64,000 bases of DNA from Saprospiraceae bacterium (GCA_021298335.1 JAJTEZ010000005.1:10822-74821); one strand, 5' to 3'; positions 3,894 through 21,482 are shown, numbered from the stretch's first letter. The notes: generated by a model not told the origin, from the letters alone. Numbers and translations: made by a program.

Positions 3894-4940
3894 TTAAAGA
3901 AATATTTCCTGTATCAGTTTTTGCATCTGGTTTGTCGCAGAATAAATGGATATTTTTCCATCATCGAGAGTCCTTGTTAGATTTTCAAAAGTGGATTTTA
4001 TTTTAGGTTGCTTGAAGGCCTGCTCCTGTATTTCTTGGGCAACCTGCTTTTGAAACCAGTATTTCAATTGGGTTTTCCTTTTCAACTCAAAATAGGATGA
4101 CTCTGAAGATAAGCGCACGTAAGAATCTATGGATTGTTTGATGTCCTCGAGTCCAATTTTCTCCAGTGAGGATACAAGATGTACCGGGCTTTGCCAGCCT
4201 TGAAGTTCATGAAGAAAAAAATGAGCTGCCTGTCCGTACATTTGACGAGTGCGTTCTGCCAAAGCAAGTTGTATCCCGTCAGCTTTGTTGACAACAAACA
4301 GATCTGCCACTTCCATGATTCCCCGTTTTATGCCCTGTATCTCATCACCTGCGCCTGGTTGCAAAAGTACAATATTCAAATCTGTCATCCTGGAAACCTC
4401 GATTTCTGACTGACCAACGCCAACAGTTTCTATCAGAATGTAATTGAAGCCGGCGGCTTCGCACAAACTGATCGCCTCACGTGTCATATCTGCCGTTCCT
4501 CCAAGACTAGAAGAGGAGGGACTAGGTCTGACAAATGCTTTTTCGGAAGATGCCAATGAGAGCATCCGGGTTTTATCGCCCAAAATGCTCCCTTTGTTTT
4601 TAGTGCTGCTGGGATCGATGGCGAGTACCGCAGGCCTGCATCCCTGGGCCACAAGAAATGAACCAAAAGAATCGATAAAAGTGCTCTTTCCCACTCCCGG
4701 CGAACCAGTAATTCCAATCCTGACCGTTCCTTCTACAACAGGCAACCGTGACAGCAGATTCATGGCAAGACTCCTTTTGTCCGGTATTTTACTTTCTAGC
4801 AATGTGATTGCCCTACCCAAAATATATCTGTCTGAGTTTTTCAGCCCCAGCAAAAAATCTTGCAGTTGAAGCTGCGAGGCATGTCTGACCGAAAAGTCCG
4901 GATTGACTAAGTCATGAGTGATCTCATTTTTTCCCTTCAT
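3894..4940 (-). CDS. meaB: MeaB/ArgK-type G3E GTPase (methylmalonyl-CoA mutase-associated)
   Basis: P-loop GITGSPGVGKSTFI, ETVGVGQSE and VVNKADG motifs; 348 aa. Confidence 0.85.
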   Translation of the reverse strand: MKGKNEITHDLVNPDFSVRHASQLQLQDFLLGLKNSDRYILGRAITLLESKIPDKRSLAMNLLSRLPVVEGTVRIGITGSPGVGKSTFIDSFGSFLVAQGCRPAVLAIDPSSTKNKGSILGDKTRMLSLASSEKAFVRPSPSSSSLGGTADMTREAISLCEAAGFNYILIETVGVGQSEIEVSRMTDLNIVLLQPGAGDEIQGIKRGIMEVADLFVVNKADGIQLALAERTRQMYGQAAHFFLHELQGWQSPVHLVSSLEKIGLEDIKQSIDSYVRLSSESSYFELKRKTQLKYWFQKQVAQEIQEQAFKQPKIKSTFENLTRTLDDGKISIYSATNQMQKLIQEIFL

Positions 4941-5109
4941 CGTATTTGTAACCTTTGTATCACATCGGGCAATTAAGAATTTGTTTCAACTACTCTGCAA
5001 ATGTGAGCATGACAAAAATAACAAATTCTGTCTTTCTTTACCTTTTTACAAAGATAGATGTCCTTTTACTCCCATAAATGCAAATCAGCCTTCTTTTTCC
5101 TGCAATCTT

Positions 5110-6984
5110 TTACGAAGATCGGAAAGCTACCGGATGATACAATTTGACATGAGGCCCCAGGTATACCCGGCTATACAATCGAATGGCAGAAATCTCAATA
5201 AAAATCAAGGTAAAAGCAATGATAATTGGCAGAAAAAACTCACCCTTATGCATATTGGAATACACAATATCCAGTCCTACAAACGTAGGAGAAATCGGAA
5301 ACCCGGCAATCGCCAATCCTGCAAACAAAAATCCCATTCCAAGCTTTGGGTGCTCATAAATATGTCCATAATGTCCGGCCAAGTCATGAATGGGCTCCTC
5401 AACGTTGAGTTTATGTAAACAATAATGACCTACTCCTCCAGCCAAAATCACTCCGCTGAGATATAACAGAGACTCATTAAAATCTATCGAACCATTATAA
5501 GCAGCTGCAAATACGATAAAAAACTGTGCGAGCACCAGATACATCCATGCTCTGAAAACAGATTGACGTTCTGTAAACGATTGCAGAACCAACAGGAAGG
5601 AGTAAATGCCAAAAAGTCCTGAAAAAATTAAGTCTATTTTATGATTTACATGTCCTAATGACGTAAAAATGAGTCCAATAGCCGATAGAATGAACAAGCC
5701 TGTGATAATATATCCGGTTTTAGAAGACAAAAATCGCAATTGATAACCCAAAACTTTAAACGGCATCCATAACACTGAATAATGCAGCTTGTCAAGATGA
5801 AATTCTTTCACAGAGAGTATGAATATCGATGACCTCAGCCGGTGATCTTTTTTAAACCAGCTTCGATCACTGGGAGCCTCAAAATGAAAATACTGTTCGT
5901 GAATCAGGTAGTTAAGTACTGATGGAGACACCAGCAACTGATAGGCCCGAAGGAATGCATTTCCTGTAAAATGAAGTACCGCCAACACATGAAGCCCTAA
6001 TGCTACTTCAATAAACATAATACCTATTTGTGCGATGGAAGAATAGCCAATCTGAATTTTTACCGATGACTGCACACTGGCAATACTTGTTGCCACCAGG
6101 CTCGTTGTCAGACCCAGTAATCCTAAAAACACCCGAAATATGATCTTGTCTTCCCATAAAGGCTCTACCCGAAGAAGAAGAAAAATGCCTATGTGGACCG
6201 AAAGGGCACCGTAAAAAATTGCCGTAGAAGTTGTTGGACCCTCCATCGCGCGCGGCAGCCAGGAAGAAAAAGGTAATTGAGCAGATTTTATAGCAGCCAC
6301 CACCAGGAAAAAGAAGGGAATCAGAAAAAAATAGGCCGGATTATGTGCCATTTGTTCTGCCCAGCCGTCCGTATTCGCAAGTTCTACAAAATTGATGTTT
6401 CTGTCAAAAGCCAGATGGCATAACCAAATAGCTAAAAGCAATGTGATATCTGACAAACGATATAGTGAAACAACTTTAATTGCATTCTTTACCGGCAAAT
6501 ACCTTAATCTGTAATATCCAATGAGAAAGAAGGAAGAAATTCCCAAAACCTCCCAGCCAATAATCAGCGTTTCGAAGTTGCCCGCAAAAATGACAAAATT
6601 CAGTCCAAGAAAAAAGAATAGTATATTATTAAAAAATCGCTTGTATCCCTTGTCCCTGTGGAGGTAGTACCTACTAAACCGGACTACCAGAAGGCTTAAT
6701 ATCACGGAAACCCATCCGTAAACCATGGTTAGCCAGTCAAAATATAAATCAAACGAAAGATGACTGTGCCCCTTTTCATAATATGTCAGAATTTCAGTAT
6801 AGAGCGATTGTCTGCCTGTCGAGAAGAAGTAAACGGTGGTAAATATCAATCCTGCAAAATAGACCCATAGAGTACCTAATGATGCAAAATATAATTTTTT
6901 CTCACTCGTTTTTCCTGGCAACAGGGAAACTAACAAACCAATTGCCGGAACCAGTATAAAAAATAGCAATAACTGTGACATCAT
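5110..6984 (-). CDS. dabB: DabB, NuoL/NdhF/MrpA-type proton-conducting membrane subunit of a DAB inorganic-carbon pump
   Basis: 624-aa polytopic protein with NuoL-like core motifs (WEVLGISSFFLIGYY, AAIKSAQLPFSSWLPRAMEGPT). Its start overlaps the dabA stop as ATGA at 6981..6984. Confidence 0.8.
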   Translation of the reverse strand: MMSQLLLFFILVPAIGLLVSLLPGKTSEKKLYFASLGTLWVYFAGLIFTTVYFFSTGRQSLYTEILTYYEKGHSHLSFDLYFDWLTMVYGWVSVILSLLVVRFSRYYLHRDKGYKRFFNNILFFFLGLNFVIFAGNFETLIIGWEVLGISSFFLIGYYRLRYLPVKNAIKVVSLYRLSDITLLLAIWLCHLAFDRNINFVELANTDGWAEQMAHNPAYFFLIPFFFLVVAAIKSAQLPFSSWLPRAMEGPTTSTAIFYGALSVHIGIFLLLRVEPLWEDKIIFRVFLGLLGLTTSLVATSIASVQSSVKIQIGYSSIAQIGIMFIEVALGLHVLAVLHFTGNAFLRAYQLLVSPSVLNYLIHEQYFHFEAPSDRSWFKKDHRLRSSIFILSVKEFHLDKLHYSVLWMPFKVLGYQLRFLSSKTGYIITGLFILSAIGLIFTSLGHVNHKIDLIFSGLFGIYSFLLVLQSFTERQSVFRAWMYLVLAQFFIVFAAAYNGSIDFNESLLYLSGVILAGGVGHYCLHKLNVEEPIHDLAGHYGHIYEHPKLGMGFLFAGLAIAGFPISPTFVGLDIVYSNMHKGEFFLPIIIAFTLIFIEISAIRLYSRVYLGPHVKLYHPVAFRSS

Positions 6985-9524
6985 TTGTGATTTAAAATGT
7001 GAATGGGAAGGTTTTCTTTGGTTGCATGCAAAATATGGTTTGTTTCCATCTCTTTTGCTGCTTCAAGAAACTCGTGGATGTCATCGACGCCAGGAACCTT
7101 GTCTCCCAACGTTTCCACTACTTCAAAGGATTCATTTCTGAAAAAATAAAATTCTCCTGTTTCTGGATGGACTGAAATCAGATGGACCCATTCATTTCGA
7201 AACCATTCGTATAAATCATCCTGAGATTGGATGACTTTCAGGACCACTTCGGGTTTGTGTTCGACAACCATTAACAGCCTGATAGGGTCATGCACCTCTA
7301 TGGTTTGCAAAGGCAATCCGGGCCTGAGGTCTCCATCGCCGCTGTTTACTACTCCAATCAGCCCCATGACGTGATGAGGCAACTTCGTTCCGGCTCCAAA
7401 CTTTTGATTGTCAACCCTGGAAAAATAATATTCCAGATTAATTCCGCCACAAACCACAGGCAGAGGCCTGATGACACCCAACAGCAGCTTTCCTTCAGGA
7501 TCAATCGAATAATCATACGAATTCATAAACGCCCTCCTGTCAAGGAATAGTCCTTTCGTGAGCGATCTTCTTCCCACAATGCACATGGCGTTGGTTCCAT
7601 GGCCAAACTCAGGCCTCGGTTCAAATAAAGAAACAGACCTGGCCTGAATCGCCCTTCGCACCTTGCGGATGTCGGCATCCGTTTTAATGGAGGCAAATCG
7701 CCGTGATCTCTCTTTTGCGTTGAGATCCAGTCCTCTATCAAACTGGTCCCAGTTGACCTGATGCCTGTTGTGGTTTTCGGCTGTCAGTATGTTGAGGTCA
7801 TAAAAATCCATCAAATCACTGGCAGTATCATGCATTCCTCCTATAAATTGGGTGCCTGGAGGAATTAAAAAACCTCGTTCAGCCAAAATTGCTCTGACCT
7901 TCACATGGTTTGCCATAAAGGCAAAAACCCTGGCGTTGACTGCACCCGGTCTACCACTGCAAGCACCGCAATCATAGGCACCATGGTGTGGGTTGTTTGC
8001 TGTGCTGGAGCCATGAGAAATCAAATAGACTAATGGTGCAAAGGCCTTCACCAGGCCAATACCTTTTAAGAGACCCTCGACTCTGTCTGCCATTTCTATC
8101 AGAGTAAAGCCTATCTGCCATCCATTTTCCCGGTCCTCAGGATGCTTGTTTTCCACAGTAAGCACAGAATCTTTACCCACTCTTGAGAAGGCATTCGGTA
8201 ATGCGGGGCTTTTCTTTGGACGTATAAGGTTAAGCAATAATTTGATGCCTGCCCAATAACCAAAAACCACGGAATGAACAAATCCTCCAAAAAATGAGTG
8301 CGTTTGCTTTTGATAAAAAATCTCTTTCCCATGCTGTACATATGGATCTGTCTCTTTAATCAGATAGCTGGGTGTCACCGGAGCCGGGCACAACTTCTCA
8401 TAAAACTTACCTCCCTCGGCAAGAAAATGAAACTCTACACCAAAAAATCCGGGACAACCCATGGTTTCACAGTTTGGTTCAATCATCTCCAGGTGGCGCC
8501 TGAGCGAACACTCCCGTTCATCAATACATAAGATTGCCTGAAATGATTTTTCCTGCGGTTGATTGGACGGCTTATCTCTGAGATGCTTCAAACCTGTCAA
8601 TACCTCATTGTAATAGGTCCACTCAAATGCATTTTGCCACATGATAAAGACTTCCTGTAGCTCACTTACTGGTACATCTGCAAATAAATCAGTGGGCTCA
8701 ACAGAAATCTGATGCGCCAGTGGCTTCCATGTTTCAGAACCCAGTTCCGAATCCAGGCTATCGATTTCAAGCAATAATTCCAGAATAATAAACTCTTCCA
8801 GGGTAATCTTTTTTCTATACAGCAGTGTATCTGGCTGTTCTTCCACCATGGCTACCATGCCGGACCAGCCATGATGTCCAAATTGCTGGTCAAACAAATA
8901 CTCGTGATACAATTCTCTCTTTCCAATCAAAATATCCAGCAACCCTGTGATCGTATAATTGCCGTCAAGCAGGATTTTACGAGCTCTGTGGGTTGAGAAA
9001 AAACTGATGTGGCTATGTTTTTCGAGTTCGCGCAACGAACCTAAAAATCCTAATTCAATGTGAGGAAAATGCCACAAAGCAATACCCTGATCCAGGTAGC
9101 TTGAAACGATTCTGAAGAGTAAAGGATGAATCCTGTCATCCAGATTGACCGTACATACCGATTTCCACAATGACCTGATTCTGCCTATTCGCGGCTCATT
9201 CAAATCATTGTATTCTTCATGGAGAAGCTTTTTTTTCCATGTAGGAACCGATACTTCTCCTTTCTCTATTGAAATCACCCGATTGAGTATGGCTTCAGAT
9301 ATTCGGCCATTTTGGTAAAGTCCCCGATAATCTGACAACTCGAGTGTGACCTGATAACCAAATATCTTTGAGGCCTTAAAAATTGCCTCATAAAATCGGA
9401 TGTGCTGAAAGGCGTGTAATGTATTGTGGTGAATAAAATCTTTAATTGGGGTCTGAGTAGGCAGATAATGCCTTAATTCATGTAAAGTATGTTCTTCTGA
9501 AAACCCAGCATGATGATTATGCAT
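6981..9524 (-). CDS. dabA: DabA, DUF2309 family (beta-CA-like cytoplasmic subunit of the DAB pump)
   Basis: 847 aa. N-terminal LPTQTPIKDFIHHNTLHAF. CIDER (Cys333/Asp335, 8520..8528) and SHGSSTANNPHHGAYDCGAC (His504 to Cys519, 7968..8015) reproduce the Cys/Asp/His/Cys zinc-ligand pattern and spacing described for DabA. Confidence 0.85.
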   Translation of the reverse strand: MHNHHAGFSEEHTLHELRHYLPTQTPIKDFIHHNTLHAFQHIRFYEAIFKASKIFGYQVTLELSDYRGLYQNGRISEAILNRVISIEKGEVSVPTWKKKLLHEEYNDLNEPRIGRIRSLWKSVCTVNLDDRIHPLLFRIVSSYLDQGIALWHFPHIELGFLGSLRELEKHSHISFFSTHRARKILLDGNYTITGLLDILIGKRELYHEYLFDQQFGHHGWSGMVAMVEEQPDTLLYRKKITLEEFIILELLLEIDSLDSELGSETWKPLAHQISVEPTDLFADVPVSELQEVFIMWQNAFEWTYYNEVLTGLKHLRDKPSNQPQEKSFQAILCIDERECSLRRHLEMIEPNCETMGCPGFFGVEFHFLAEGGKFYEKLCPAPVTPSYLIKETDPYVQHGKEIFYQKQTHSFFGGFVHSVVFGYWAGIKLLLNLIRPKKSPALPNAFSRVGKDSVLTVENKHPEDRENGWQIGFTLIEMADRVEGLLKGIGLVKAFAPLVYLISHGSSTANNPHHGAYDCGACSGRPGAVNARVFAFMANHVKVRAILAERGFLIPPGTQFIGGMHDTASDLMDFYDLNILTAENHNRHQVNWDQFDRGLDLNAKERSRRFASIKTDADIRKVRRAIQARSVSLFEPRPEFGHGTNAMCIVGRRSLTKGLFLDRRAFMNSYDYSIDPEGKLLLGVIRPLPVVCGGINLEYYFSRVDNQKFGAGTKLPHHVMGLIGVVNSGDGDLRPGLPLQTIEVHDPIRLLMVVEHKPEVVLKVIQSQDDLYEWFRNEWVHLISVHPETGEFYFFRNESFEVVETLGDKVPGVDDIHEFLEAAKEMETNHILHATKENLPIHILNHK

Positions 9525-9644
9525 GTGTATGTTTTTTGTTTAGTAAAAAATCCAGCAAAAATTTCCCATCCGAAATGCGTTGAACGGGTGCCTTCCAGAA
9601 AATAAAGAACACCAACAGGATGAAACCTATCTTTTTCATATCAA

Positions 9645-11126
9645 CTATAGTTTTTTCTTTCTCGATGCGAGATCGTGATCAGACAGCGGTGTGTGTCCAT
9701 CCAATCCAATTATCCGGACTATTCCGCCGGTTCGCTCATAATCACGCTTAAAATGATGCAGGTTTTCCATCACAGAATGGTCTGTTAACCGGGTTTGCTG
9801 CAGATCAATTGTGACATTAAATCCGCCGGGTATGCTCTCAAGACTGTTTTTAATGCCAATAAAGTTGGTAAAAACAGCCGCTTTATCTACCTCCACATGA
9901 TACTCATCTTCTGCAAAAGAAATTGAGACAGGTGCTTTAAATAAAGACCTTAAAGGAACTCCGTTGATTACATGTAAAATAAGTTTGAGCAATATGCCAG
10001 CTGCAATCCCCACCAGTAAATCTTCCGCCAGTGTAAAAAAGATTGTGGTTAGAAAGATTGCTAACTGCTCTCTTCCAATCTGAAAAGTATGCACAAATTC
10101 CTTTGGATGAGCCAGTTTAATTCCCACCGAAATCAACATGGCTGCCAATGCTGCATTGGGAATCATTTCTATGTATTTTGCAGCCAAAAGCACAAAAATC
10201 AGAATAAAAAACCCGTGGAAAAAGTTGGCCCATCTCGTTTTTGCTCCGTTATTTACGTTGGCTGAACTTCTGGCTACTTCTGAAATCATCGGTAGTCCAC
10301 CAAGAACAGAAGTAATCGCGTTGCCAATGCCTACAGCAATCAGGTCTTTGTTGTTGTCTGATTTTCTCTTGTAGGGGTCTAGCTGATCGATCGCTTTGAC
10401 TGTAAGCAGAGATTCCAGTGAGCCCACCAATGCAAACATTATGACATATTTGATGAAAATACCCGGATGAGCCAATCCTCCAAAATCAACATTCCAATGG
10501 ATGTTTTCCAGCAAATTTCCGATGTTTACCAGCGCATACTGAGGCTCGGTATGTTGAAAATCCATCATCAACTCTGCCGGAACCGCAATACACAATACGA
10601 CCAGAGGTGCTGGAAGTTTTCCCAATGTAAATTTCTTTAAATAAGGCCAGCCCATCATGATTGCAAGACTGATCACACCAATCATTGTTCCTCTCGGATC
10701 CAGGTTTGAAACAATCTCCGGCAGTGAACCCAGGATGGCCAGAGGACCCTTTCCTTTCATGAGGGCAGGATCAACATTCATCATGACAGGTAATTGTTTT
10801 GCAATGATGATGATGCCAATGGCTGCCAACATACCATGTATGGCAGATAAAGGAAAGAAATCAGCCAACTTTCCAAATCGGAATACTCCAAAAAGGATTT
10901 GTACAATTGCGGCAACAAACATAGCCCCCAGAGCCAGATGCCACCCTGTCTCTCCCCCCCCAAATTCTGTCACAGATCCAGCAACAATGACTATTAATCC
11001 GGCAGCAGGACCTTTTATTGTGAGTCGGCTTCCCGCTAAAATGCTGACTACCATGCCCCCTACAATCGCTGTTATCAATCCCATGATGGGGGGAAATTCT
11101 GAAGCTTTGGCTATGCCTAAACTCAA
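9645..11126 (-). CDS. SulP-family anion (probable bicarbonate) transporter with C-terminal STAS domain; 5' end disrupted or ambiguous
   Basis: SulP core motifs GPAAGLIVIVAG and SEVARSSANVNNGAKTRW. The ORF as listed starts at a TTG in the middle of TM1 (..LSLGIAKAS). The likely original ATG is at 11194..11192 in a different frame; see findings. Confidence 0.8.
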   Translation of the reverse strand: MSLGIAKASEFPPIMGLITAIVGGMVVSILAGSRLTIKGPAAGLIVIVAGSVTEFGGGETGWHLALGAMFVAAIVQILFGVFRFGKLADFFPLSAIHGMLAAIGIIIIAKQLPVMMNVDPALMKGKGPLAILGSLPEIVSNLDPRGTMIGVISLAIMMGWPYLKKFTLGKLPAPLVVLCIAVPAELMMDFQHTEPQYALVNIGNLLENIHWNVDFGGLAHPGIFIKYVIMFALVGSLESLLTVKAIDQLDPYKRKSDNNKDLIAVGIGNAITSVLGGLPMISEVARSSANVNNGAKTRWANFFHGFFILIFVLLAAKYIEMIPNAALAAMLISVGIKLAHPKEFVHTFQIGREQLAIFLTTIFFTLAEDLLVGIAAGILLKLILHVINGVPLRSLFKAPVSISFAEDEYHVEVDKAAVFTNFIGIKNSLESIPGGFNVTIDLQQTRLTDHSVMENLHHFKRDYERTGGIVRIIGLDGHTPLSDHDLASRKKKL

Positions 11127-11278
11127 AGGCAGCGCGAGTAAAAAAACTAAAGGCCGGAAATGCCGTCCTGAGGAACTGCTTGATAAGATTCCATATTAAC
11201 TATTTGTTGAAGTACAAAAAAGGAGTACTCGGGACAAGAATTGACACGCGAATACAGAATTTTGAATAATTCTAAATA

Positions 11279-11659
11279 CTAGACTTCAAACAAATCAATC
11301 TTCCAGCAATGGAAAAGGAGAAATAATGATTTTTTGACGTAACCGGGAGGAGTATCAGATAAATCATTGCATTTGTTAAGGAATACCTTTCCTGGCTGCA
11401 AAAATTGCCGTATGTCACATGCCAGGCCTTGAAAAGTGCCGATGCTTTCAGTGTCATCTTCTGAAATTTCTGTCTGCTCTTCCTTATTAAAACCGGAGAA
11501 CTGACCTAAAAAACCCGATTCGTCTTGGGTTTCTTTTGCTGAATTCAAATATGCCTGATCCCCGTGAATAGGAAATTCAATCCTTACAGGAGGAATGGTG
11601 CTCAGCGCAAGAAGCTGAAGAATGAGAAAAAAACTTAAAAGCCGCGATACAATTTTCAT
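11279..11659 (-). CDS. Hypothetical small secreted protein (signal peptide, acidic middle, Cys pair)
   Basis: ATG ORF of 126 aa beginning MKIVSRLLSFFLILQLLALS. It lies 84 nt upstream of the SulP ATG on the same strand. Confidence 0.5.
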   Translation of the reverse strand: MKIVSRLLSFFLILQLLALSTIPPVRIEFPIHGDQAYLNSAKETQDESGFLGQFSGFNKEEQTEISEDDTESIGTFQGLACDIRQFLQPGKVFLNKCNDLSDTPPGYVKKSLFLLFHCWKIDLFEV

Positions 11660-11775
11660 TGAAAATTGGATGGGTGTAAAAAACTGATAACCCCACCAAA
11701 AGTACGGTGGTTTTATAATTCATCACAAAATTCCGGTAAAAAACTAAAAAATCAAGAATCCTCCAATAAGCAATA

Positions 11776-12432
11776 TTATCTGTTGATCATTTTATATACA
11801 AAAGGAATTGTAGTAAACAAAACTATGCACAACACAATATATCCAAGATTACTAGATAAGTCGTAATTATATTTTTCTATTAAAAAAGCGTTTAGATAGT
11901 GTCCTGTCAACACCATTGAGATCGTCCAGGTCAGGCAGCCTGTAATATTAAATAGCATAAAACGTTGATAATTCATCTGTACCGTCCCTGCGACTATAGG
12001 AGCAAAAGTACGTATAAAGGGAATAAACCGGGCGACGAAGATCGTTAATGAACCGTGTTTGTCATAGTACTTTTTAGCATCATTCAAATGCCTGTGCTTA
12101 AAAAATAAGGTATCTTTCCCCTCATACAGGCGCTGACCCCCCTTCTTTCCAAACCAATACCCAAAAATATTGCCCAAAACTCCAGAAAATGAAATACATA
12201 AAATAATGAGCGTGAGTCTCAGAATTTCGTTTTCTACAGGTATCACTCCTTCCATCAGTCGATTGCTAAAAACACCCGCCACAAACAATAAAGAATCTCC
12301 CGGCAAAAAGAACCCAGCAAACAAGCCGGTTTCTGCAAACACCACAAACATAATCAATAGAATACCCCCGTTGGCTACATACCATTGCGGTTGCAGTAAA
12401 TCTGTAAAATGAAGTAAACTAAACAACCACAC
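11776..12432 (-). CDS. DedA-family (VTT domain) membrane protein
   Basis: FFLPGDSLLFVAG, ARFIPFIRTFAPIVAG; 218 aa. Confidence 0.85.
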   Translation of the reverse strand: MWLFSLLHFTDLLQPQWYVANGGILLIMFVVFAETGLFAGFFLPGDSLLFVAGVFSNRLMEGVIPVENEILRLTLIILCISFSGVLGNIFGYWFGKKGGQRLYEGKDTLFFKHRHLNDAKKYYDKHGSLTIFVARFIPFIRTFAPIVAGTVQMNYQRFMLFNITGCLTWTISMVLTGHYLNAFLIEKYNYDLSSNLGYIVLCIVLFTTIPFVYKMINR

Positions 12433-12546
12433 AAATTTTATCTCTACTCTGTGTCATAATCAAATTGAAATACAATCATGCAAATTTGCACACTTTCATT
12501 GTGATTTGATTGATCTTCACAATCTTTTTCTTTTCCCTTTGCTTTG

Positions 12547-13233
12547 TCATTTTCTGTTTCGCAGTACCTCCACCACAATAGGAAGCAATGAAACCCCAAT
12601 AATGCCAAAGATTACTGTTTCAAAATGTTCTTGTATAATGGGTATGTTTCCAAAAAAATATCCCAGCATGGTCAGGCCAACTACCCAGACTATTCCTCCA
12701 ATGACATTGAAGCGAAGAAACTGTGAATAAGCCATTTCTCCAATGCCGGCAACAAACGGGGCAAATGTGCGCACGATTGGGACAAATCTGGCAATAATAA
12801 TCGTCCTGCTTCCATGCTTAGCATAAAACGCACGGGTTTGATCTAAATATTTCTCTTTCACAAGACGAAATCCACCTATTTCCCACTGTAACACCTTCAA
12901 ACCAATCGAACTTCCCAACTTATAGTTTACACTGTCACCCGCTACGGCGGCCACTATCAGGGAAACCAACACAATCCAGAGACTCAGCTCAGCCGACTCT
13001 CCCTGCTCATTGATTACACCTGCACAAAATGCTCCTGCAGCAAAAAGCAAAGAGTCTCCCGGCAAAAAAGGCATCACAACAAGACCTGTTTCCACAAATA
13101 CAATCAGAAACAAAAACACATATATCCAAACACCATATTCCCTGATGAGTGTAAATAAATGGTCGTCAATGTGTAAAATAAAATCAAGTAATGTCTGAAT
13201 AATTTCCATTGGATGCTGAGGATTACTCCACAA
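12547..13233 (-). CDS. DedA-family (VTT domain) membrane protein, tandem paralogue
   Basis: PFLPGDSLLFAAG, ARFVPIVRTFAPFVAG; 228 aa. Confidence 0.85.
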   Translation of the reverse strand: MWSNPQHPMEIIQTLLDFILHIDDHLFTLIREYGVWIYVFLFLIVFVETGLVVMPFLPGDSLLFAAGAFCAGVINEQGESAELSLWIVLVSLIVAAVAGDSVNYKLGSSIGLKVLQWEIGGFRLVKEKYLDQTRAFYAKHGSRTIIIARFVPIVRTFAPFVAGIGEMAYSQFLRFNVIGGIVWVVGLTMLGYFFGNIPIIQEHFETVIFGIIGVSLLPIVVEVLRNRK

Positions 13234-13481
13234 ATGTACATGTTTAGACCTTGCTTTTCCTTCTGCTAAAAAGAATTCTAAGAGATTCTTTTTACGGTCT
13301 TCTCAAATCAGAAATTCAGGATGAATCTGCATCAAAAATTTGATTGCGCACATCCTGTAAGAGAACTATTGTTGTTCTCTGTAATTCAAGGTTTTAAGAA
13401 AAATATTTGGCAAGAAACACACTTGTTTTAAACGCAAATAAAAATATTATTTTATTAAAAACTAAATAAGCAAATTATGCT

Positions 13482-13489
13482 TACTTTTG
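13482..13489 (+). promoter_or_regulatory. Candidate Bacteroidota -7 promoter box (TAnnTTTG) upstream of nuoA
   Basis: TACTTTTG lies about 40 nt upstream of the nuoA ATG. No clear -33 element was found. Confidence 0.3.
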
Positions 13490-13529
13490 CAATGCGATAG
13501 TAAATGACTGTCTGTAAACCCTTTGAGAG

Positions 13530-13910
13530 ATGGAGAGTATATCTATTGATGCCATTCAAATGGACTATCTTGCGATTTTAGCGCAATTCGTTATAGCATC
13601 AGGTTTTGTTTTGGGGACCTTTTTTTTGACTCATAAGCTGGGGCCAAAGTTTAAAAGTGATAAAAAACTACAGGCTTTCGAATGTGGTCTTGAGTCAATC
13701 GGCGATGCGCGTCTTCCCTTCTCTGTAAAATATTTTCTTGCGGCCATCTTGTTTGTCTTGTTTGATGCAGAAATTATTTTTTTCTATCCCTGGGCGGTAA
13801 ATTTCAGAGAACTTGGCGAATCCGGATTACTTAAAATGGTGCTGTTTGTATCTCCCTTCCTTCTGGGATTTTATTATGTCATTAAAAAGGGTGCATTGAA
13901 ATGGGAATAA
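13530..13910 (+). CDS. nuoA: NADH-quinone oxidoreductase subunit A
   Basis: 126 aa; FECG..., FLAAILFVLFDAEIIFFYPWA; first gene of the operon. Confidence 0.9.
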   Translation: MESISIDAIQMDYLAILAQFVIASGFVLGTFFLTHKLGPKFKSDKKLQAFECGLESIGDARLPFSVKYFLAAILFVLFDAEIIFFYPWAVNFRELGESGLLKMVLFVSPFLLGFYYVIKKGALKWE

Positions 13911-14455
13911 ATCCAGAACTGATACCAATAAAAAATGGTCCGGAAATGTATACCGGAGAAGGGTATGGGCTGACTCAAATCGAAAAAGTCATCGGTCTTG
14001 CCAGAGCCAATTCCATCTGGCCTCTTCCCTTTGCTACCTCTTGTTGTGGAATTGAGTTTATGGCCACAATGGCAGCCACCTACGATTTAGGAAGATTCGG
14101 TGCCGAAAGGCTTAGCTTCTCTCCGAGACAGGCAGATCTTCTGATGGTTATGGGTACGATTGCAAAAAAAATGGGCCCAGTACTTAGACAGGTTTATATC
14201 CAAATGGCGGAACCAAAATGGGTGATTGCCGTGGGTGCATGCGCCAGCAGTGGTGGTATTTTTGACACTTACTCGGTTCTCCAGGGCATTGATAAGGTAA
14301 TCCCTGTCGATGTGTATGTGCCTGGCTGCCCCCCCCCTCCTGAAGCAATTCTCGACGGTATTCTGAAAATTCAGGATCTGATCAAACAAGAGCCTATCCG
14401 GCGAAGAGAATCACCGCAGTATAAAGAATTACTCGCGAGTTACGACATACAATGA
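13901..14455 (+). CDS. nuoB: NADH-quinone oxidoreductase subunit B
   Basis: SCCGIEFMA, GACASSGG and PGCPP cluster N2 motifs. Confidence 0.95.
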   Translation: MGINPELIPIKNGPEMYTGEGYGLTQIEKVIGLARANSIWPLPFATSCCGIEFMATMAATYDLGRFGAERLSFSPRQADLLMVMGTIAKKMGPVLRQVYIQMAEPKWVIAVGACASSGGIFDTYSVLQGIDKVIPVDVYVPGCPPPPEAILDGILKIQDLIKQEPIRRRESPQYKELLASYDIQ

Positions 14456-14967
14456 GTAAGGTAGAAAAAACAGACAACCAGTTTGTCAGAGAAAGCATTC
14501 AAAACCAGTTTGGACCAGCCGTAAAAAGCATCGAAGAGAGCTATGGTATGCTCGATATTGTGATCAGCAAGGACACCCTGATTCCTGTAATTACATGGTT
14601 AAAAAAAACTGAAACACTTCGGTTTCAGTTTTTGACAAGCCTTTGCGGTGTGCATTATCCGGAGCAGAAGGAATTTGAGTTTTCAGTGGTTTATCACCTG
14701 CATAGTCTGACGCAAAATATCCGCATTCGCATTCATATTTTCATGCCTGAATCTGATCTGAAGGTGCCCACACTCACCACCTTGTTTGCCGGAGCCAACT
14801 GGATGGAACGGGAAACATTTGAATTTTATGGCATTCAATTCACTGGACACCCTGATCTTCGTACCATATTGAATGTCGAAGACATGAACTATCACCCACT
14901 GAGAAAACAATACCCTCTTGTAGACAACACAAGAACTGACAAAGATGATAAATATTTCGGACGATAA
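14452..14967 (+). CDS. nuoC: NADH-quinone oxidoreductase subunit C
   Basis: ANWMERETFEFYGIQFTGHPDLR motif; ATGA overlap with nuoB. Confidence 0.9.
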   Translation: MSKVEKTDNQFVRESIQNQFGPAVKSIEESYGMLDIVISKDTLIPVITWLKKTETLRFQFLTSLCGVHYPEQKEFEFSVVYHLHSLTQNIRIRIHIFMPESDLKVPTLTTLFAGANWMERETFEFYGIQFTGHPDLRTILNVEDMNYHPLRKQYPLVDNTRTDKDDKYFGR

Positions 14968-16183
14968 TTTTCACAATGACCATCGGATTAATGGTCATGT
15001 AGAACCGGAGGAAGACATCCGGCAATACAATTACCTTAATTTGGGACCTACCCATCCCGCCACTCATGGCATCTTCCAGAATATCCTGAAAATGGATGGT
15101 GAAATCATCGTAGAAGCGGAGCCCACAATCGGTTATATACACCGCGCGTTCGAAAAACTAGCAGAAAACAGACCTTTTTACCAAATACCTACAATCACTG
15201 ACCGACTCAATTACTGTTCTGCGCCCATCAACAATATCGGATGGCATCTGACCATTGAAAAACTACTCGGTGTTGAAACGCCCAAACGGGTAGATTACCT
15301 TCGCGTCATCATTATGGAACTGGCGCGTATTGCTGACCACATCATCTGCAACAGTGTAATTGCCGTCGACACTGGTGCTCTTACGGGATTTTTGTATGTT
15401 TTTCAGTGGAGGGAAAAAATTTATGATATTTACGAAGAAATCTGTGGCGCAAGACTCACAACCAATATCGGTCGAATCGGTGGCTTTGAAAGGGATTTCA
15501 ACGAAACAGTTTTTGCCCGAATTGAACACTTTCTGAAAGAGTTTCCGGCAGCACTCAAAGAATTCGAAAGTTTGGTCATGAGAAACCGAATTTTCATGGA
15601 TAGGACCATCCAGGTAGGGGGAATATCAGCAGAAAGGGCTCTTGAGTATAGCTTTACTGGTCCAAATCTTCGTGCAGCGGGAGTGGATTATGACGTGCGG
15701 GTCATGACCCCCTACTGTTCATATGAGGATTTTGATTTTACAATACCCCTAGGATCTTCTGGTGATACCTATGACAGATTTTGTGTCCGCCAGGAAGAAA
15801 TGTGGCAAAGCCTAAGCATCATTCGTCAGGCACTGAAAAACCTTCCGGAGGGAAATTTTCATGCTGATGTTCCTGAATTTTACCTTCCTCCAAAAGAAAA
15901 TGTATACAATTCCATGGAAGGCCTCATTTGGCACTTTAAAATTGTGATGGGTGAGATCAATGTTCCCAAAGGACAGGTTTACCAGTGTGTAGAAGGCGGC
16001 AATGGTGAATTGGGATTTTATCTGATTTCAGACGGTGGAAGACAACCTTTCCGTCTTCACTTTAGAAGACCATGTTTTATTTATTATCAGGCATACCCTG
16101 AAATGATTCAGGGCAGTATGCTTAGTGATGCCATTCTGACTATGAGTAGCATGAATGTCATTGCCGGTGAACTTGATGCATAA
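14945..16183 (+). CDS. nuoD: NADH-quinone oxidoreductase subunit D
   Basis: LNLGPTHPATHG, RIADHI, and C-terminal PCFIYYQAYPEMIQG..DAILTMSSMNVIAGELD. Confidence 0.95.
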   Translation: MINISDDNFHNDHRINGHVEPEEDIRQYNYLNLGPTHPATHGIFQNILKMDGEIIVEAEPTIGYIHRAFEKLAENRPFYQIPTITDRLNYCSAPINNIGWHLTIEKLLGVETPKRVDYLRVIIMELARIADHIICNSVIAVDTGALTGFLYVFQWREKIYDIYEEICGARLTTNIGRIGGFERDFNETVFARIEHFLKEFPAALKEFESLVMRNRIFMDRTIQVGGISAERALEYSFTGPNLRAAGVDYDVRVMTPYCSYEDFDFTIPLGSSGDTYDRFCVRQEEMWQSLSIIRQALKNLPEGNFHADVPEFYLPPKENVYNSMEGLIWHFKIVMGEINVPKGQVYQCVEGGNGELGFYLISDGGRQPFRLHFRRPCFIYYQAYPEMIQGSMLSDAILTMSSMNVIAGELDA

Positions 16184-16194
16184 AAGCAGTAAAA

Positions 16195-16710
16195 ATGACA
16201 AACTTGCAGGAATTATCTATCAGCACTGAAGCAGCCGAAAATGTCCGGAGGATTATCTCTCAATATCCTGCAGACAAAAAAAAATCAGCGCTGCTTCCAG
16301 TGTTGCACATTGTTCAGAATGAAACCGAAGGGTGGCTCACAATCAATACAATGGATAATGTAGCTAAATTGCTCGAAATCACTCCCATTGAAGTGTACGA
16401 AGTGGCCACATTTTACTCTATGTATCATATTGAGCCTGTGGGAAAACACGTCATCGAAGTTTGCCAGACCGGACCCTGTATGATTTGTGGATCAGAAAAA
16501 CTAGTGCACTACCTTGAAAAGAAACTGGGAATCCTTGTTGGACAAACAACTCCTGACGGCATGTTTACTCTGAAAACTGTAGAATGTCTGGGAGCCTGCG
16601 GTTACGCACCCATGTTTCAGATTGGCGAAACCTATTACGAAAACCTGACCGAAGAAAAAGTAGATCAAATCCTTGACTCACTTCTTTCTGCAACGTCTTC
16701 CAATATATAA
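16195..16710 (+). CDS. nuoE: NADH-quinone oxidoreductase subunit E (2Fe-2S)
   Basis: CQTGPCMICG ... CLGACGYAP cysteine pattern. Confidence 0.9.
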   Translation: MTNLQELSISTEAAENVRRIISQYPADKKKSALLPVLHIVQNETEGWLTINTMDNVAKLLEITPIEVYEVATFYSMYHIEPVGKHVIEVCQTGPCMICGSEKLVHYLEKKLGILVGQTTPDGMFTLKTVECLGACGYAPMFQIGETYYENLTEEKVDQILDSLLSATSSNI

Positions 16711-16714
16711 TGTG

Positions 16715-18070
16715 ATGGCGAGAAAGTTATTACTTGAACTTGCGGATATACCACAAATTCAAAACATCGATACTTATATCAGTCATGGGGGGTACAGGTC
16801 TCTGGAAAAGGCATTGAAAAAAATGACCCCTGACGAAATTACTGAGGAAGTAAAAAAATCGGGCCTTCGGGGTCGGGGAGGAGCTGGATTTTCCACGGGC
16901 CTGAAATGGTCGTTTCTGGACAAATCAACCGACAAACCCAGATACCTTCTATGCAATGCAGATGAAAGTGAGCCAGGTACATTCAAGGACAGATACCTAA
17001 TGGAAAAGCTGCCGCATTTACTGATTGAGGGAATGATTCTTTCCAGCTATGCACTAGGGTCAAATACCAGCTATATTTATATCAGAGGAGAATATATGTT
17101 TGTGCTGAGAAAGCTGGAAAAAGCCATTCAGGAAGCATATTCCAAAGGATTTCTGGGAAAAAACATATTAAATTCAGGGTTTGATCTCGACCTATACGTA
17201 CATCCAGGTGCAGGAGCCTATATCTGTGGGGAAGAAACTGCTCTGATCGAATCGCTGGAGGGAAAGCGAGGTAATCCCCGCATCAAGCCCCCGTTTCCCG
17301 CAGTTTCAGGGCTTTGGGGTTGTCCTACAATTGTCAACAATGTGGAAAGTATCGCTGCTGTCGTTCCGATTATAAATGATGGCGGAGATGAGTATGCAAA
17401 AATCGGATTGGGTAAGTCTACCGGCACAAAATTAATTTCTGCTTCCGGAAATATTCAAAAACCCGGAGTTTACGAAATTGACATGGGTATTACTGTAGAA
17501 GAGTTTATATATTCCGATGAGTATTGTGGCGGCATGAAAGATGGTCTGGAATTAAAAGCCTGTGTGCCTGGCGGATCTTCTGTTCCGATTTTACCCAGAC
17601 ACCTTTTATTCAGGGAAAGTAATGGCGATTCTCGGCGAATGACATACGAAAGCCTCTCCGAAGGAGGTTTTACATCAGGTTCTATGCTGGGTTCCGGCGG
17701 CTTTATAGTCTACGATGAAAAACAGTGCATCGTAAGAAATACATGGAATTTCGCACGGTTTTATCACCATGAAAGTTGTGGCCAGTGTAGTCCTTGCAGG
17801 GAAGGGACCGGCTGGATGGAGAGGATTTTACATAATATCGAAAATGGTCGCGGAACAGAAGATGATATCCAATTACTCTGGCAGGTTCAAAAAAACATCG
17901 AGGGTAATACCATCTGTCCTCTTGGGGATGCCGCTGCTTGGCCGGTAGCTGCAGCTATAAGGCATTTCAGACACGAATTTGAATACCATGTAAAATACCC
18001 TGAAAGAGTTTTCGATGCAGATCACACATATCAGCCAGAAATTCAGCAGACTTATAGTTTGACAACTTAA
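16715..18070 (+). CDS. nuoF: NADH-quinone oxidoreductase subunit F (FMN, NADH, 4Fe-4S)
   Basis: GLRGRGGAGFSTGLKW, CNADESEPGTFKDR, ESCGQCSPCREG. I chose the ATG at 16715 (MARKLL), just after the nuoE stop, rather than the longer overlapping ORF. Confidence 0.95.
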   Translation: MARKLLLELADIPQIQNIDTYISHGGYRSLEKALKKMTPDEITEEVKKSGLRGRGGAGFSTGLKWSFLDKSTDKPRYLLCNADESEPGTFKDRYLMEKLPHLLIEGMILSSYALGSNTSYIYIRGEYMFVLRKLEKAIQEAYSKGFLGKNILNSGFDLDLYVHPGAGAYICGEETALIESLEGKRGNPRIKPPFPAVSGLWGCPTIVNNVESIAAVVPIINDGGDEYAKIGLGKSTGTKLISASGNIQKPGVYEIDMGITVEEFIYSDEYCGGMKDGLELKACVPGGSSVPILPRHLLFRESNGDSRRMTYESLSEGGFTSGSMLGSGGFIVYDEKQCIVRNTWNFARFYHHESCGQCSPCREGTGWMERILHNIENGRGTEDDIQLLWQVQKNIEGNTICPLGDAAAWPVAAAIRHFRHEFEYHVKYPERVFDADHTYQPEIQQTYSLTT

Positions 18071-18085
18071 AATTGCGTACGGACA

Positions 18086-19048
18086 ATGCCAAAAGTCACA
18101 ATAGACGATATTTCTTTAGAGGTTCCATTAGGAACAACGATTCTACAGGCAGCCAGAATGATCGGCCAGAATGTGCCACCAGCTATGTGTTATTATAGTA
18201 AGCTGGAAGGCAGTGGTGGAAAGTGTCGCACATGCCTGGTACAAGTCGTAGCCGGATCTTATAAGGACCCCAGACCTATGCCAAAGTTGGTAGCCAGTTG
18301 CCGAACTACTGTCATGGATGGTATGGAGGTCAGAAATACGACTTCTTCTGAAGTACAGGAGGCACGAAAAGGTGTCACAGAGTTTCTTCTCGCAAATCAT
18401 CCCCTGGACTGTCCGGTATGTGATCAGGCCGGAGAATGCAAATTGCAAGATCTAAGCTATGAACATGGCCTCTCCAAAAGCAGGTATGAGTTTAAAAGAA
18501 GAGAATTTGACCGCATTGACATCGGTGATAAAATACAGCTGCACATGAACCGCTGTATACTTTGTTACCGTTGTACTCAAGTGGCAGAACAGCTGACCCC
18601 GGAAAGAGTCCATGGCGTTCTACACAGAGGGGAACATTCTGAAATTTCCACGATGATAGAAAAGGCAATTGACAACGACTTTTCAGGCAATATGATTGAT
18701 GTTTGCCCTGTAGGAGCTCTGACAGACAAAACATTTCGATTTAAGTCCCGGGTATGGTTTACAAAACCTGTTTTTGCCCACAGAAACTGTCCAGGTTGCG
18801 AAGGAAAAGTGACTCTTTGGTATCAGGGAAGTGAAGTACTGCGTGTCACTTCCAGAAAAGACAAGTGGGGTGAAGCTGAATCCTTTATCTGTAACTCTTG
18901 TCGGTTTGACCATAAAAAAACAGAAGACTGGGTCATAGAAGGACCAGCGAAAATTGACAGCCATTCCGTCATTTCTCAGAATCACATGAAGTTCGAACTG
19001 CCTGTAATTCAACCTCTTTTAACAACTGAAAACGAGCAAACAGCATGA
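18086..19048 (+). CDS. nuoG: NADH-quinone oxidoreductase subunit G, short form (N-terminal Fe-S domains only)
   Basis: 2Fe-2S pattern CYYSKLEGSGGKCRTCLV, then HPLDCPVCDQAGECKLQD and CILCYRCTQV..CPVGAL. 320 aa; ATGA overlap with nuoH. Confidence 0.85.
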   Translation: MPKVTIDDISLEVPLGTTILQAARMIGQNVPPAMCYYSKLEGSGGKCRTCLVQVVAGSYKDPRPMPKLVASCRTTVMDGMEVRNTTSSEVQEARKGVTEFLLANHPLDCPVCDQAGECKLQDLSYEHGLSKSRYEFKRREFDRIDIGDKIQLHMNRCILCYRCTQVAEQLTPERVHGVLHRGEHSEISTMIEKAIDNDFSGNMIDVCPVGALTDKTFRFKSRVWFTKPVFAHRNCPGCEGKVTLWYQGSEVLRVTSRKDKWGEAESFICNSCRFDHKKTEDWVIEGPAKIDSHSVISQNHMKFELPVIQPLLTTENEQTA

Positions 19049-20079
19049 CAATTCTGGTATTCAAAATTCTGCTGGTGCTTGTGCTATTCCTGATTTCTCT
19101 TGGAGTGGCAGCATACAGTACATATTCTGAACGGAAGGTTGCCGCTTTTATTCAAGACAGGCTTGGTCCCAATCGCGCGGGGCCTTTTGGCATTCTCCAA
19201 CCAATTGCTGATGGGATAAAAATGATCATGAAGGAGGAAATCATTCCTTTGACTTCAAACAAAATTTTATTTGTTGCTGGGCCCGCGATTACAATGATTA
19301 CGGCCCTGATGACCAGTGCCGTCATTCCCTGGGGACCCTCGGTTACCATCGATGGTATGAAGGTGCCTTTGCAGGTGGCCGACATCAATATCGGTATTTT
19401 GTACGTCATGGGGGTAGTCAGCCTTGGAGTATATGGAATCATGATTGGAGGCTGGGCGTCAAACAACAAATATGCGCTTCTAGGAGCTGTTCGTGCCTCC
19501 ACTCAAATGATCAGTTATGAACTGGCAATGGGCATGAGCATCATTGCCATCATTATGACTACGGGCTCACTTAGCATCGGAGATATGGTAACTGGCCAGC
19601 ACGGGACATGGGGTATGGGTTGGAACATTTTTGTGCAACCTCTGGGGTTTTTAATCTTTCTCATTTGTGCATTTGCAGAATGTAACCGCACACCATTTGA
19701 CCTGCCGGAAAGTGAAACAGAACTTGTGGGTGGATATCACACGGAATATTCAAGTATGAAACTCGGATTTTATCTTTTTGCCGAGTATGTCAACATGTTT
19801 ATTTCAAGCGCCATTATCACCTGCCTGTATTTTGGAGGTTATCATTTTCCGTTTATGGATAAAGTTTCTGCCATCATGGGGGAAGTACCCTTTGCAATCT
19901 TATGTGTCATGGTGTTTTTTCTGAAAATACTATTTTTTATCTTCTTTTTTATGTGGGTCCGTTGGACAATTCCACGTTTTCGTTTCGATCAACTGATGAA
20001 TCTTGGATGGAAAGTACTCCTACCCCTTTCAGTATTGAATATGCTGGCTACAGGAACAATAATAGTATTAAATTCTTAG
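19045..20079 (+). CDS. nuoH: NADH-quinone oxidoreductase subunit H
   Basis: ERKVAAFIQDRLGPNRAGPFGILQPIADGIK, NRTPFDLPESETELVGGYHTEYS. Confidence 0.95.
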   Translation: MTILVFKILLVLVLFLISLGVAAYSTYSERKVAAFIQDRLGPNRAGPFGILQPIADGIKMIMKEEIIPLTSNKILFVAGPAITMITALMTSAVIPWGPSVTIDGMKVPLQVADINIGILYVMGVVSLGVYGIMIGGWASNNKYALLGAVRASTQMISYELAMGMSIIAIIMTTGSLSIGDMVTGQHGTWGMGWNIFVQPLGFLIFLICAFAECNRTPFDLPESETELVGGYHTEYSSMKLGFYLFAEYVNMFISSAIITCLYFGGYHFPFMDKVSAIMGEVPFAILCVMVFFLKILFFIFFFMWVRWTIPRFRFDQLMNLGWKVLLPLSVLNMLATGTIIVLNS

Positions 20080-20083
20080 TCTT

Positions 20084-20632: not shown

Positions 20633-20644
20633 AAACAACGTATT

Positions 20645-21151: not shown

Positions 21152-21482
21152 GTTACTGGAGCTGAAAGACCAGCTCAGACTGATACCTCTAAGCCACTAT
21201 GTCTTCCTTTGCCTTGCCTTGTTTAGTATCGGAATGACAGGGGTGCTGCTAAGAAGAAATATGATCATTGTATTTTTAAGCATTGAGCTCATGCTGAATT
21301 CCGTCAATCTGCTGGCAGTTGCATTTTCGGTTTATCACAATGATCCTGGAGCGCAGGCTTTTGTTTTCTTCAACATGGTAGTGGCAGCTGCCGAGGTGGC
21401 TGTTGGTCTGGCGATGCTCGTTATGATCTACCGAAATATTAAAACCATAGACATTAATGCATTAAACCGTCTGAAATGGTAA
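21144..21482 (+). CDS. nuoK: NADH-quinone oxidoreductase subunit K
   Basis: LSIELMLNSVNLLAVAF..AAAEVAVGLA. I chose the ATG at 21144 (MNELLE). Confidence 0.9.
   Translation: MNELLELKDQLRLIPLSHYVFLCLALFSIGMTGVLLRRNMIIVFLSIELMLNSVNLLAVAFSVYHNDPGAQAFVFFNMVVAAAEVAVGLAMLVMIYRNIKTIDINALNRLKW

Follow-up and report, generated by a model that had tools for sequence, protein, structure and literature searches.

What use does a heterotrophic, gliding bacterium have for a pair of genes that resembles the CO2 pump of Halothiobacillus neapolitanus, and how far can the mechanism described for that pump be carried over to it? The window considered here, meaning the whole stretch of DNA that was analysed, consists of 64,000 nucleotides from a Saprospiraceae bacterium (GCA_021298335.1 JAJTEZ010000005.1:10822-74821). 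Two adjacent genes on its minus strand, dabA and dabB, had been proposed in a preliminary description to encode an energy-coupled pump of the DAB (also called MpsAB) type. Judged from sequence, the locus probably encodes a two-subunit DAB (MpsAB/DAC-type) system that converts CO2 to bicarbonate and serves a heterotroph. The pair belongs to the DAB family, its metal site is intact, the pairing and order of the genes are conserved, and the link to SulP-family transporters is genetic and sometimes physical. The parts of the pair are as follows, with all positions counted from the first letter of the window.

6981..9524, minus strand: dabA, 847-aa cytoplasmic subunit resembling beta-carbonic anhydrases (PF10070; from Pfam, the match to PDB 9rd0_A and an AlphaFold 2 (AF2) model)
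8520..8528, minus strand: codons of C333-I334-D335, zinc ligand Cys and catalytic Asp, with R337 next (D-x-R dyad)
8439..8459, minus strand: lid motif GCPGFFG (residues 356-362), counterpart of GI(A/G)GFFG
8223..8309, minus strand: hydrophobic helical hairpin of DabA, approximately residues 406-434, counterpart of the 'finger/elbow' (alignment and AF2)
7968..8015, minus strand: H504 to C519, zinc ligands in SHGSSTANNPHHGAYDC, the NNP...DCGAC DAB motif
7599..7616, minus strand: RPEFGH (residues 637-642) of DabA (alignment to 9rd0_A)
5110..6984, minus strand: dabB, 624-aa NuoL-like membrane subunit (PF00662 and PF00361; from Pfam and AF2)

The gene pair and its zinc site

The dabA product matches the PF10070 (DabA) profile over its full length (693 bits, E=7e-208, profile positions 2-747 of 747, cut-off 25), as expected from the earlier identification of the 847-aa open reading frame (ORF) as DUF2309/DabA. 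A scan against NCBIfam returned no family at E<=0.01. Among solved structures, a phmmer search finds DabA2 of H. neapolitanus (PDB 9rd0_A, E=6e-69, 236 bits), and in this alignment C333, D335, H504 and C519 correspond to C351, D353, H524 and C539 of DabA2. The residue numbering, in which CIDER begins at 333 and SHGSS at 503, agrees with the DNA coordinates. The proposal that all four zinc-site residues are kept is thus exact, down to the positions of their codons.

Conservation was examined in a set of 162 DabA representatives (150 cluster representatives nearest to the window DabA and 11 closer relatives) and in 80 Bacteroidota homologues. The four zinc-site residues are invariant wherever the column is filled, in 159-160 of the 162 representatives (C333 in 160 and D335 in 159, the remainder being gaps) and in 80/80 Bacteroidota homologues. 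For R337 and for both Asn residues of the NNP motif the count is 157-158 representatives each, and N510, N511, D518 and C519 are found in all 80 homologues. The lid is similarly well conserved (G359 and F361 in 80/80, P358 and F360 in 79/80). Three DAB-specific motifs have been defined on the T. albus DAB1 structure (DAB1 preprint), and two of them, GI(A/G)GFFG and NNP....DCGAC, are matched here as GCPGFFG and NNPHHGAYDCGACSG. The assignment of the sequence to the DabA family is near certain, and a chance origin is excluded because the ORFs are so long and have such E-values.

The stop codon of dabA and the ATG of dabB share an ATGA at 6981..6984 (AAT CAC AAA TGA TGT CAC on the coding strand). 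Read from the minus strand, this overlap joins dabA to a NuoL-like gene just as had been described, and the product of the latter matches PF00361 (121.8 bits) as well as PF00662. The best sequence matches of DabB among solved structures are NuoL/ND5 chains, with DabB2 at 88 bits, and a nuo operon (13530..26433) begins only 4 kb away. These features raise the alternative that dabB has nothing to do with inorganic carbon and is either a spare antiporter subunit of the complex I type or a decaying relic. However, DabB falls below all NuoL and Mrp cut-offs in NCBIfam (184 versus 407.5 for TIGR01974, and 190 versus 556), whereas the real nuoL, a separate gene at 21476..23437 as previously stated, scores 708 bits against the same TIGR01974 model. 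The nuo operon holds a complete nuoA-N set of its own, with dabB outside it. Furthermore, dabB directly follows dabA in 71 of the 71 related loci that hold both genes (among the best 80 of at least 587 stretches encoding relatives in a one-genome-per-species collection), and in the window both are intact ORFs with invariant catalytic residues. A spare or relic subunit is therefore very improbable, and a complex I fragment is ruled out because DabB misses the NCBIfam cut-offs and its gene is consistently paired with dabA. The earlier preference for a DAB/MpsAB pair over such a fragment is upheld by the family match and the ligand alignment together with these two observations.

The two-subunit DAB2 of H. 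neapolitanus (PDB 9rd0; Lo et al. 2026, PMC13144422) shares with the window pair the combination of PF10070 and PF00361 with no DabC, the four zinc-site residues, the D-x-R dyad, the GFFG lid, the NNPH..DCGAC motif and the hydrophobic DabA hairpin, as well as the NuoL-like transmembrane (TM) helices 1-11 of DabB with K/D/R/K/H retained. However, the scores of the window pair against DabA2 and DabB2 (236 and 88 bits) are low, its DabB is longer (624 aa versus 551 aa), and no carboxysome genes are in view in its heterotrophic host. DAB1 (DabABC) of T. albus and H. neapolitanus has the same catalytic core and motifs, but requires DabC, a small membrane subunit, and its DabA, of ~1000 aa, contains NNPYESALDCGACGG and a Leu. 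The DAB1 type was ruled out for the window pair, as the genes flanking dabAB (meaB, a 40-aa ORF and sulP) include no DabC-like gene.

Predicted structures are consistent with these comparisons. The AF2 model of DabA is confident overall (predicted local distance difference test score, pLDDT, 78.9; predicted template-modelling score 0.82), but weak in loops 507-521, 631-642 and 704-742, which carry active-site and DabB-contact motifs; the helices of its hairpin comprise residues 406-409 and 411-434. The DabB model (pLDDT 82.3) can be superposed on E. coli NuoL at 2.0 A across its first ~357 residues; beyond TM1-11 its C-terminal part departs from NuoL. DabB2 is reported to follow NuoL over TM1-11 and then to diverge likewise (Lo et al. 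2026, PMC13144422).

Residues that set the branch apart

In place of DW(xxx)RPEWGL, the third DAB motif, the window DabA has SLFEPRPEFGH, and so lacks both the Trp and the Leu. His642 occupies the site of Leu658 in DabA2 and Leu825 in T. albus DabA1. His is found in this column in 158 of the 162 representatives and in all 80 Bacteroidota homologues, and Leu in the four RPEWGL-type sequences sampled. The motif Leu stands in for the Gln or His hydrogen-bond donor of ordinary beta-carbonic anhydrases, and in CsoSCA, a carbonic anhydrase, the residue corresponding to His642 is likewise a His. A different mechanism is not implied by His642 alone, because the L658Q, G, A and N variants of DAB2 are still active in vivo. 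Two residues earlier, Phe640 stands where DabA1 and DabA2 have a strictly conserved Trp (Trp656); most of the clade has Leu here, and mutation of Trp656 uncouples DAB2. In the hairpin, H417 aligns with Glu444 of the DabA2 finger, which is essential in DAB2 (PMC13144422). The clade has I, S, L, A or Y at this position and never an acidic residue, although this hairpin is variable and its alignment less secure than that of the other sites.

The membrane subunit shows comparable changes. The residues below were read from alignments to E. coli NuoL and to the window's own NuoL, and their conservation was counted in 75 members of the clade.

6286..6552, minus strand: DabB residues kept from NuoL, namely E145 (6550..6552), R176, D179 and K233 (6286..6288)
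5947..6213, minus strand: DabB channel residues differing from NuoL and DabB2, namely Y258, N342 and R346 (phmmer alignment to E. coli NuoL)

Y258 (6211..6213) is Tyr in 75/75 sequences, where NuoL has His254 and DabB2 has His260; an invariant His264 (75/75) lies six residues further on. N342 (5959..5961) is Asn in 72/75, at the site of His338 in NuoL and His343 in DabB2, and R346 (5947..5949) is Arg in 75/75, at the site of Lys342 in NuoL and Lys347 in DabB2; both of these positions lie in TM11. In DAB2, His260, His343 and Lys347 are each essential (PMC13144422), and mutation of His260 or of its T. albus counterpart His229 abolishes function. Conversely, E145 is Glu in 74/75 (the remaining one a gap), as in NuoL (Glu144), where DabB2 has Ile151. 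K309 and H338 are also retained relative to NuoL. The divergent C-terminal part of DabB contains a number of invariant ionisable residues (E394, R473, D572, R602, R606, H612 and H617), which could supply an outer half-channel.

Four plasmid loci from Staphylococcus pettenkoferi, Methylocystis, Pantoea and the archaeon Halorussus served as outgroups. All four show the opposite state at each compared position, the order dabB then dabA, and a shorter DabB of 492-529 aa. Because the opposite state holds throughout, the family splits into two co-varying types. The co-varying set consists of Leu to His, Trp to Leu or Phe, and the finger Glu to a non-acidic residue in DabA; His to Tyr, His to Asn, and Lys to Arg in DabB, with the Glu of GWE kept; and the switch in gene order. 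All characterised members that could be placed (DabA2, T. albus DabA1 by its published motif, and the staphylococcal homologue) belong to the RPEWGL/His type. The type of the window, with His at the position of the motif Leu, is also found in Myxococcota and Bdellovibrionota. Taken together, the changes along the ion path are a stronger reason for caution than His642 alone.

These departures in both subunits weigh against carrying the DAB1 and DAB2 mechanism over to the window pair, and several other observations fall on the same side. In BLAST comparisons the window DabB scores 63-93 bits with RPEWGL-type DabB proteins and 123 bits with the host NuoL, so that by sequence it is no closer to those DabB proteins than to NuoL. 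The gene for the adjacent SulP transporter is disrupted, its frame being shifted after codon 15 with loss of most of the first TM helix. A Foldseek search with the DabA model against a copy of the PDB ending 2026-04-08, with 9rd0 and the other DAB structures outside it, returned as its top match CsoSCA (8thm_C), the only match with a carbonic-anhydrase fold, at a non-significant E=0.06. This match is no evidence by itself, although the authors of the DAB1 structure name CsoSCA as the closest structural homologue of DabA (DAB1 preprint); CsoSCA differs in being soluble, reversible and not membrane-coupled. Finally, a literature search for a tested DAB from Bacteroidota or from this clade found none, its coverage being incomplete and the absence no proof.

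The altered channel residues of DabB could also reflect another ion. MpsAB of Staphylococcus aureus has been proposed as a Na+/HCO3- cotransporter (PMC6689103), in which case the window pair would take up bicarbonate with no CO2 hydration, and a homologue fused to SulP carries the NCBI name 'Na-translocating system protein MpsB'. The invariant and intact zinc site of the carbonic anhydrase type argues instead for chemistry on CO2, and DAB2 uses CO2 and needs no sodium. MpsAB and the Bacillus subtilis CanC-NdhF-MpsB(YbcC) system represent the same two-family pair in heterotrophs. However, their order is mpsA (nuoL-like) then mpsB, and the staphylococcal homologue compared, from the S. pettenkoferi plasmid, is of the RPEWGL/His type and 26% identical to the window DabA. 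Because of this difference in type the Mps model does not transfer directly, and a sodium-bicarbonate symporter appears decidedly unlikely for this locus.

SulP transporters and the gene neighbourhood

Systems such as the window pair were already recognised as widespread among heterotrophic Bacteroidota. Relatives found by sequence pattern number at least 587 stretches in the one-genome-per-species collection. The best 80 loci are nearly all labelled Bacteroidota, including Saprospiraceae, Chitinophagaceae, Cytophagales, Flavobacterium laiguense, Runella limosa and Fibrivirga algicola, with about ten bearing other phylum labels. The best match of DabA among species representatives has 66% identity and comes from a Bacteroidota metagenome-assembled genome; close matches in metagenomes point to Saprospiraceae, and the nearest matches with a name are Saprospiraceae and other Bacteroidota. 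In some genomes two pairs of this type lie close together (L067 590..5296, L007 10560..14526), and one of the pairs in L067 is far more divergent, with DabA scoring 431 bits and DabB 117 bits in comparison with their window counterparts.

Two aspects of the locus had been called unusual, its gene order downstream of a SulP gene and its heterotrophic host, and both are ordinary for the branch. The order dabA then dabB is the ordinary one, found without exception in the 71 related loci noted above and described in 2017 (Klimchuk et al., PMC5700660). In that study of gene neighbourhoods (COGNAT), ybcC (dabA) lies upstream of a nuoL homologue in 'clade C', often with a COG0659 sulfate-permease (SulP) gene nearby, and the window has this arrangement. 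It differs in that the NuoM-like gene of the 2017 description is absent here, and that paper predates the function of DAB, dealing with gene neighbourhoods only. A SulP gene is likewise a regular neighbour, adjoining the pair in about 60 of the 80 loci, 54 times on the same strand (45 upstream, 9 downstream) and a further 5 times on the opposite one. As for the heterotrophic host, DABs in heterotrophs were pointed out by Desmarais et al., Bacteroidetes are among the phyla with adjacent mpsAB homologues (Fan et al. 2019, PMC6689103), and such reports date to 2018-2019. The gene call itself therefore adds little, given a named Pfam family, the many relatives, and a layout and SulP link known since 2017.

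In two cases from Saprospiraceae, SulP is fused in frame to DabA (L066, 246..4421, and the 1390-aa P0122, with PF00916 at residues 22-394 and PF10070 at 556-1323). These fusions, the frequency of SulP beside the pair, and the co-variation of substitutions across both subunits with a switch in gene order could indicate a mechanistically distinct SulP-DabA-DabB assembly, in which a carbonic anhydrase site with the canonical His is linked to bicarbonate transport by SulP. The ion path or coupling ion could then differ from those of DAB1 and DAB2, and a regulated or reversible carbonic anhydrase metabolon could replace a vectorial pump. Fusions of SulP with carbonic anhydrases are a known theme, cited as Felce and Saier (2004). 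However, many members of the clade have no SulP gene within 6 kb, and since the Leu658 variants of DAB2 work in vivo, a His at that site need not alter the mechanism. In the window dabAB is intact although the adjacent SulP gene is disrupted, which speaks for DabAB being able to function by itself. On this balance a distinct assembly of this kind is unlikely, and the two-subunit DAB remains the preferred reading.

The gap between sulP and dabA often holds a further gene. Ten ORFs from such gaps were scanned, and five match PF00484 and are beta-carbonic anhydrases without a signal peptide, giving the order sulP, cytoplasmic beta-carbonic anhydrase, dabA, dabB (L008, L009, L010, L015 and L024). 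A beta-carbonic anhydrase can also share the cluster in B. subtilis. An ordinary carbonic anhydrase beside a one-way carbonic anhydrase would short-circuit a true CO2-concentrating mechanism, so that a role in bicarbonate supply fits instead. Three others of the ten are DUF2490 (PF10677) proteins with an N-terminus resembling a signal peptide, located between sulP and dabA (L002 1143..1913, L005 1606..2400) or between sulP and the beta-carbonic anhydrase gene (L024 4591..5256). In L047 the gap holds a 454-aa protein with a similar signal-like N-terminus and no Pfam match. The DUF2490 and L047 proteins may be outer-membrane channels of the cluster.

The genes surrounding the pair in the window, and those of a second inorganic-carbon locus (28788..31010, minus strand), are as follows.

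3894..4940, minus strand: meaB, methylmalonyl-CoA mutase-associated GTPase, directly downstream of dabB
9517..9639, minus strand: 40-aa ORF (MKKIGFILLVFFIFW...) that separates sulP from dabA and overlaps the start of the latter (from sequence)
9645..11194, minus strand: sulP1, SulP-family anion transporter gene directly upstream of dabA (PF00916, 200.6 bits)
11279..11659, minus strand: 126-aa protein with a hydrophobic N-terminus, specific to the sub-lineage, heading the cluster
28788..29444, minus strand: Can-type beta-carbonic anhydrase gene (NF007756, 269 bits, cut-off 251)
29434..30900, minus strand: second SulP gene (sulP2), overlapping the beta-carbonic anhydrase gene

The first 17.4 kb of the window align in two blocks, at 99.6-99.95% identity, with a metagenomic contig (L001) that has the same cluster: two DedA genes, the 126-aa protein, sulP, the 40-aa ORF, dabA, dabB and meaB. 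Relative to this contig, sulP1 carries a 37-bp deletion at its 5' end (11151..11194), with its junction at ~11151-11161 between ATTTCCGG(C/T)C repeats (direct repeats ATTTCCGGCC/ATTTCCGGTC). The longest remaining ORF begins at a TTG at 11126, and the L001 version is intact at 528 aa. The lesion may mark a true pseudogene or have arisen during assembly. Thus, a SulP gene and a small protein are both present upstream, as had been noted (PF00916, and 126 aa with a hydrophobic N-terminus), but the SulP gene is frameshifted. Against the BicA equivalog model SulP1 scores 130.7 bits, far from the cut-off of 880, and it is placed in the SulP family only, with bicarbonate a probable substrate from its context. 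Most of the substitutions between window and contig fall in dabA (27 of 42; 18 synonymous and 9 non-synonymous, at residues 227-726, none at a ligand); dabB has 1, and dabB, meaB and sulP have 1-2 each. This clustering suggests a recombination tract.

The 40-aa ORF was considered as a small subunit and rejected: it is found only in the 99.6%-identical L001, there is no gene at that position in the related loci L089 and L090, and it is probably not a conserved gene. The 126-aa protein has no Pfam or NCBIfam match, but has counterparts of 36-37% identity at the same position in L089 and L090, and shares with them an acidic KxEQ..ED..E and a C-terminal LFxxFHxWK. In L001, too, dabB is succeeded by a MeaB homologue, and in L008 one lies ~830 bp beyond dabB. 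This neighbourhood is too rare to indicate a functional link, though meaB belongs to bicarbonate-dependent propionyl-CoA metabolism. A promoter and terminator scan of 4700..13600, which is not built for the promoters of Bacteroidota, gave counts no higher than in shuffled sequence. Neither an Rfam nor a tRNA scan of the window gave a match, and hence no known riboswitch lies ahead of the cluster.

At the second locus sulP2 has no in-frame canonical start; its apparent ATG (MESRSLLSFW*) lies in the +1 frame, and the L086 homologue is intact at 541 aa. The two inorganic-carbon loci flank the nuo operon, and in both the SulP gene looks damaged at its 5' end, with dabAB and the beta-carbonic anhydrase gene intact. 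Elsewhere in the window, a gene for the gliding lipoprotein GldD (51878..52471) and the Pfam scan fit the earlier picture of a gliding host with no RuBisCO in view, a picture that left out the beta-carbonic anhydrase of the second locus. Two partial polyprenyl synthetase ORFs (35656..36165, minus strand, and 61785..62459, plus strand), covering positions 4-145 and 3-189 of the 251 in PF00348, may be frameshifted or truncated genes. Two tandem genes for sigma factors of the extracytoplasmic function type, 178 aa each (55462..56690, minus strand), adjoin two tandem FKBP-type isomerase genes (56808..57704).

Proposed function and its meaning

In the working model, DabA would sit on the cytoplasmic face of DabB with its hydrophobic hairpin inserted into DabB, and CO2 would reach the buried Zn(Cys2His) site, of the beta-carbonic anhydrase kind, in DabA. 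Ion flow through the NuoL-like DabB would gate access to this site and drive the one-way hydration of CO2 to bicarbonate in the cell. A comparable arrangement exists in the cyanobacterial NDH-1(3/4)-CupA/B complexes, in which an antiporter-like NuoL/NdhF subunit is tied to one-way CO2 hydration and a SulP-family bicarbonate transporter (BicA) works alongside; however, CupA and CupB are unrelated to DabA, and the coupling is to the redox-driven NDH-1. Characterised DAB relatives rescue E. coli free of carbonic anhydrase, and their uptake is sensitive to carbonyl cyanide m-chlorophenylhydrazone. That CO2 is the substrate of the window pair, in which direction the reaction runs and which ion is coupled to it, we infer. 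Calling the pair an energy-coupled CO2 pump like the H. neapolitanus DAB is an extrapolation, and its coupling mechanism can be put forward only by inference, because the branch lacks several residues that are essential or strictly conserved in DAB1 and DAB2.

The bicarbonate formed would most likely feed bicarbonate-dependent carboxylases, with respiratory CO2 being recaptured. Heterotrophs use DAB/MpsAB redundantly with carbonic anhydrase (PMC6689103). The proposed role agrees with findings on S. aureus MpsAB (PMC6689103) and the B. subtilis system, in which the pair provides the bicarbonate needed to grow in air and is redundant in function with beta-carbonic anhydrase; canC-ndhF-mpsB of B. 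subtilis is redundant with other carbonic anhydrases. Together with a conventional beta-carbonic anhydrase and a transporter of the SulP type, probably for bicarbonate, DabAB would form a redundant inorganic-carbon toolkit. This functional reading is likely rather than assured, because the coupling residues differ and no tested member of the branch was found.

The models of one-way CO2 hydration from the two cryo-electron microscopy studies of 2026 rest on residues described there as conserved or essential, namely Leu658/Leu825, Trp656 and Glu444 in DabA and on His260, His343 and Lys347 in DabB. A large and widespread branch replaces all of these residues, in a co-varying manner, while the zinc site and lid stay. 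For the question of what keeps carbonic anhydrase activity one-way, the branch is therefore a useful natural experiment. One possible, though rather doubtful, interpretation is that the DABs of this branch (clade C, with His at the motif Leu; Bacteroidota, Myxococcota, Bdellovibrionota and other phyla) form a second and mechanistically distinct class of membrane-coupled carbonic anhydrase, with the canonical His kept, an ion path through other DabB residues (the TM5 Glu kept, and Tyr, Asn and Arg in place of His, His and Lys), and a SulP partner or fusion. If so, the rules of one-way catalysis drawn from the 2026 DAB1 and DAB2 structures would not be general. The SulP-DabA fusions offer a handle on whether the hydration of CO2 is coupled physically to bicarbonate transport. 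More broadly, the locus supports the view that abundant heterotrophic Bacteroidota of freshwater and soil invest in active inorganic-carbon capture.

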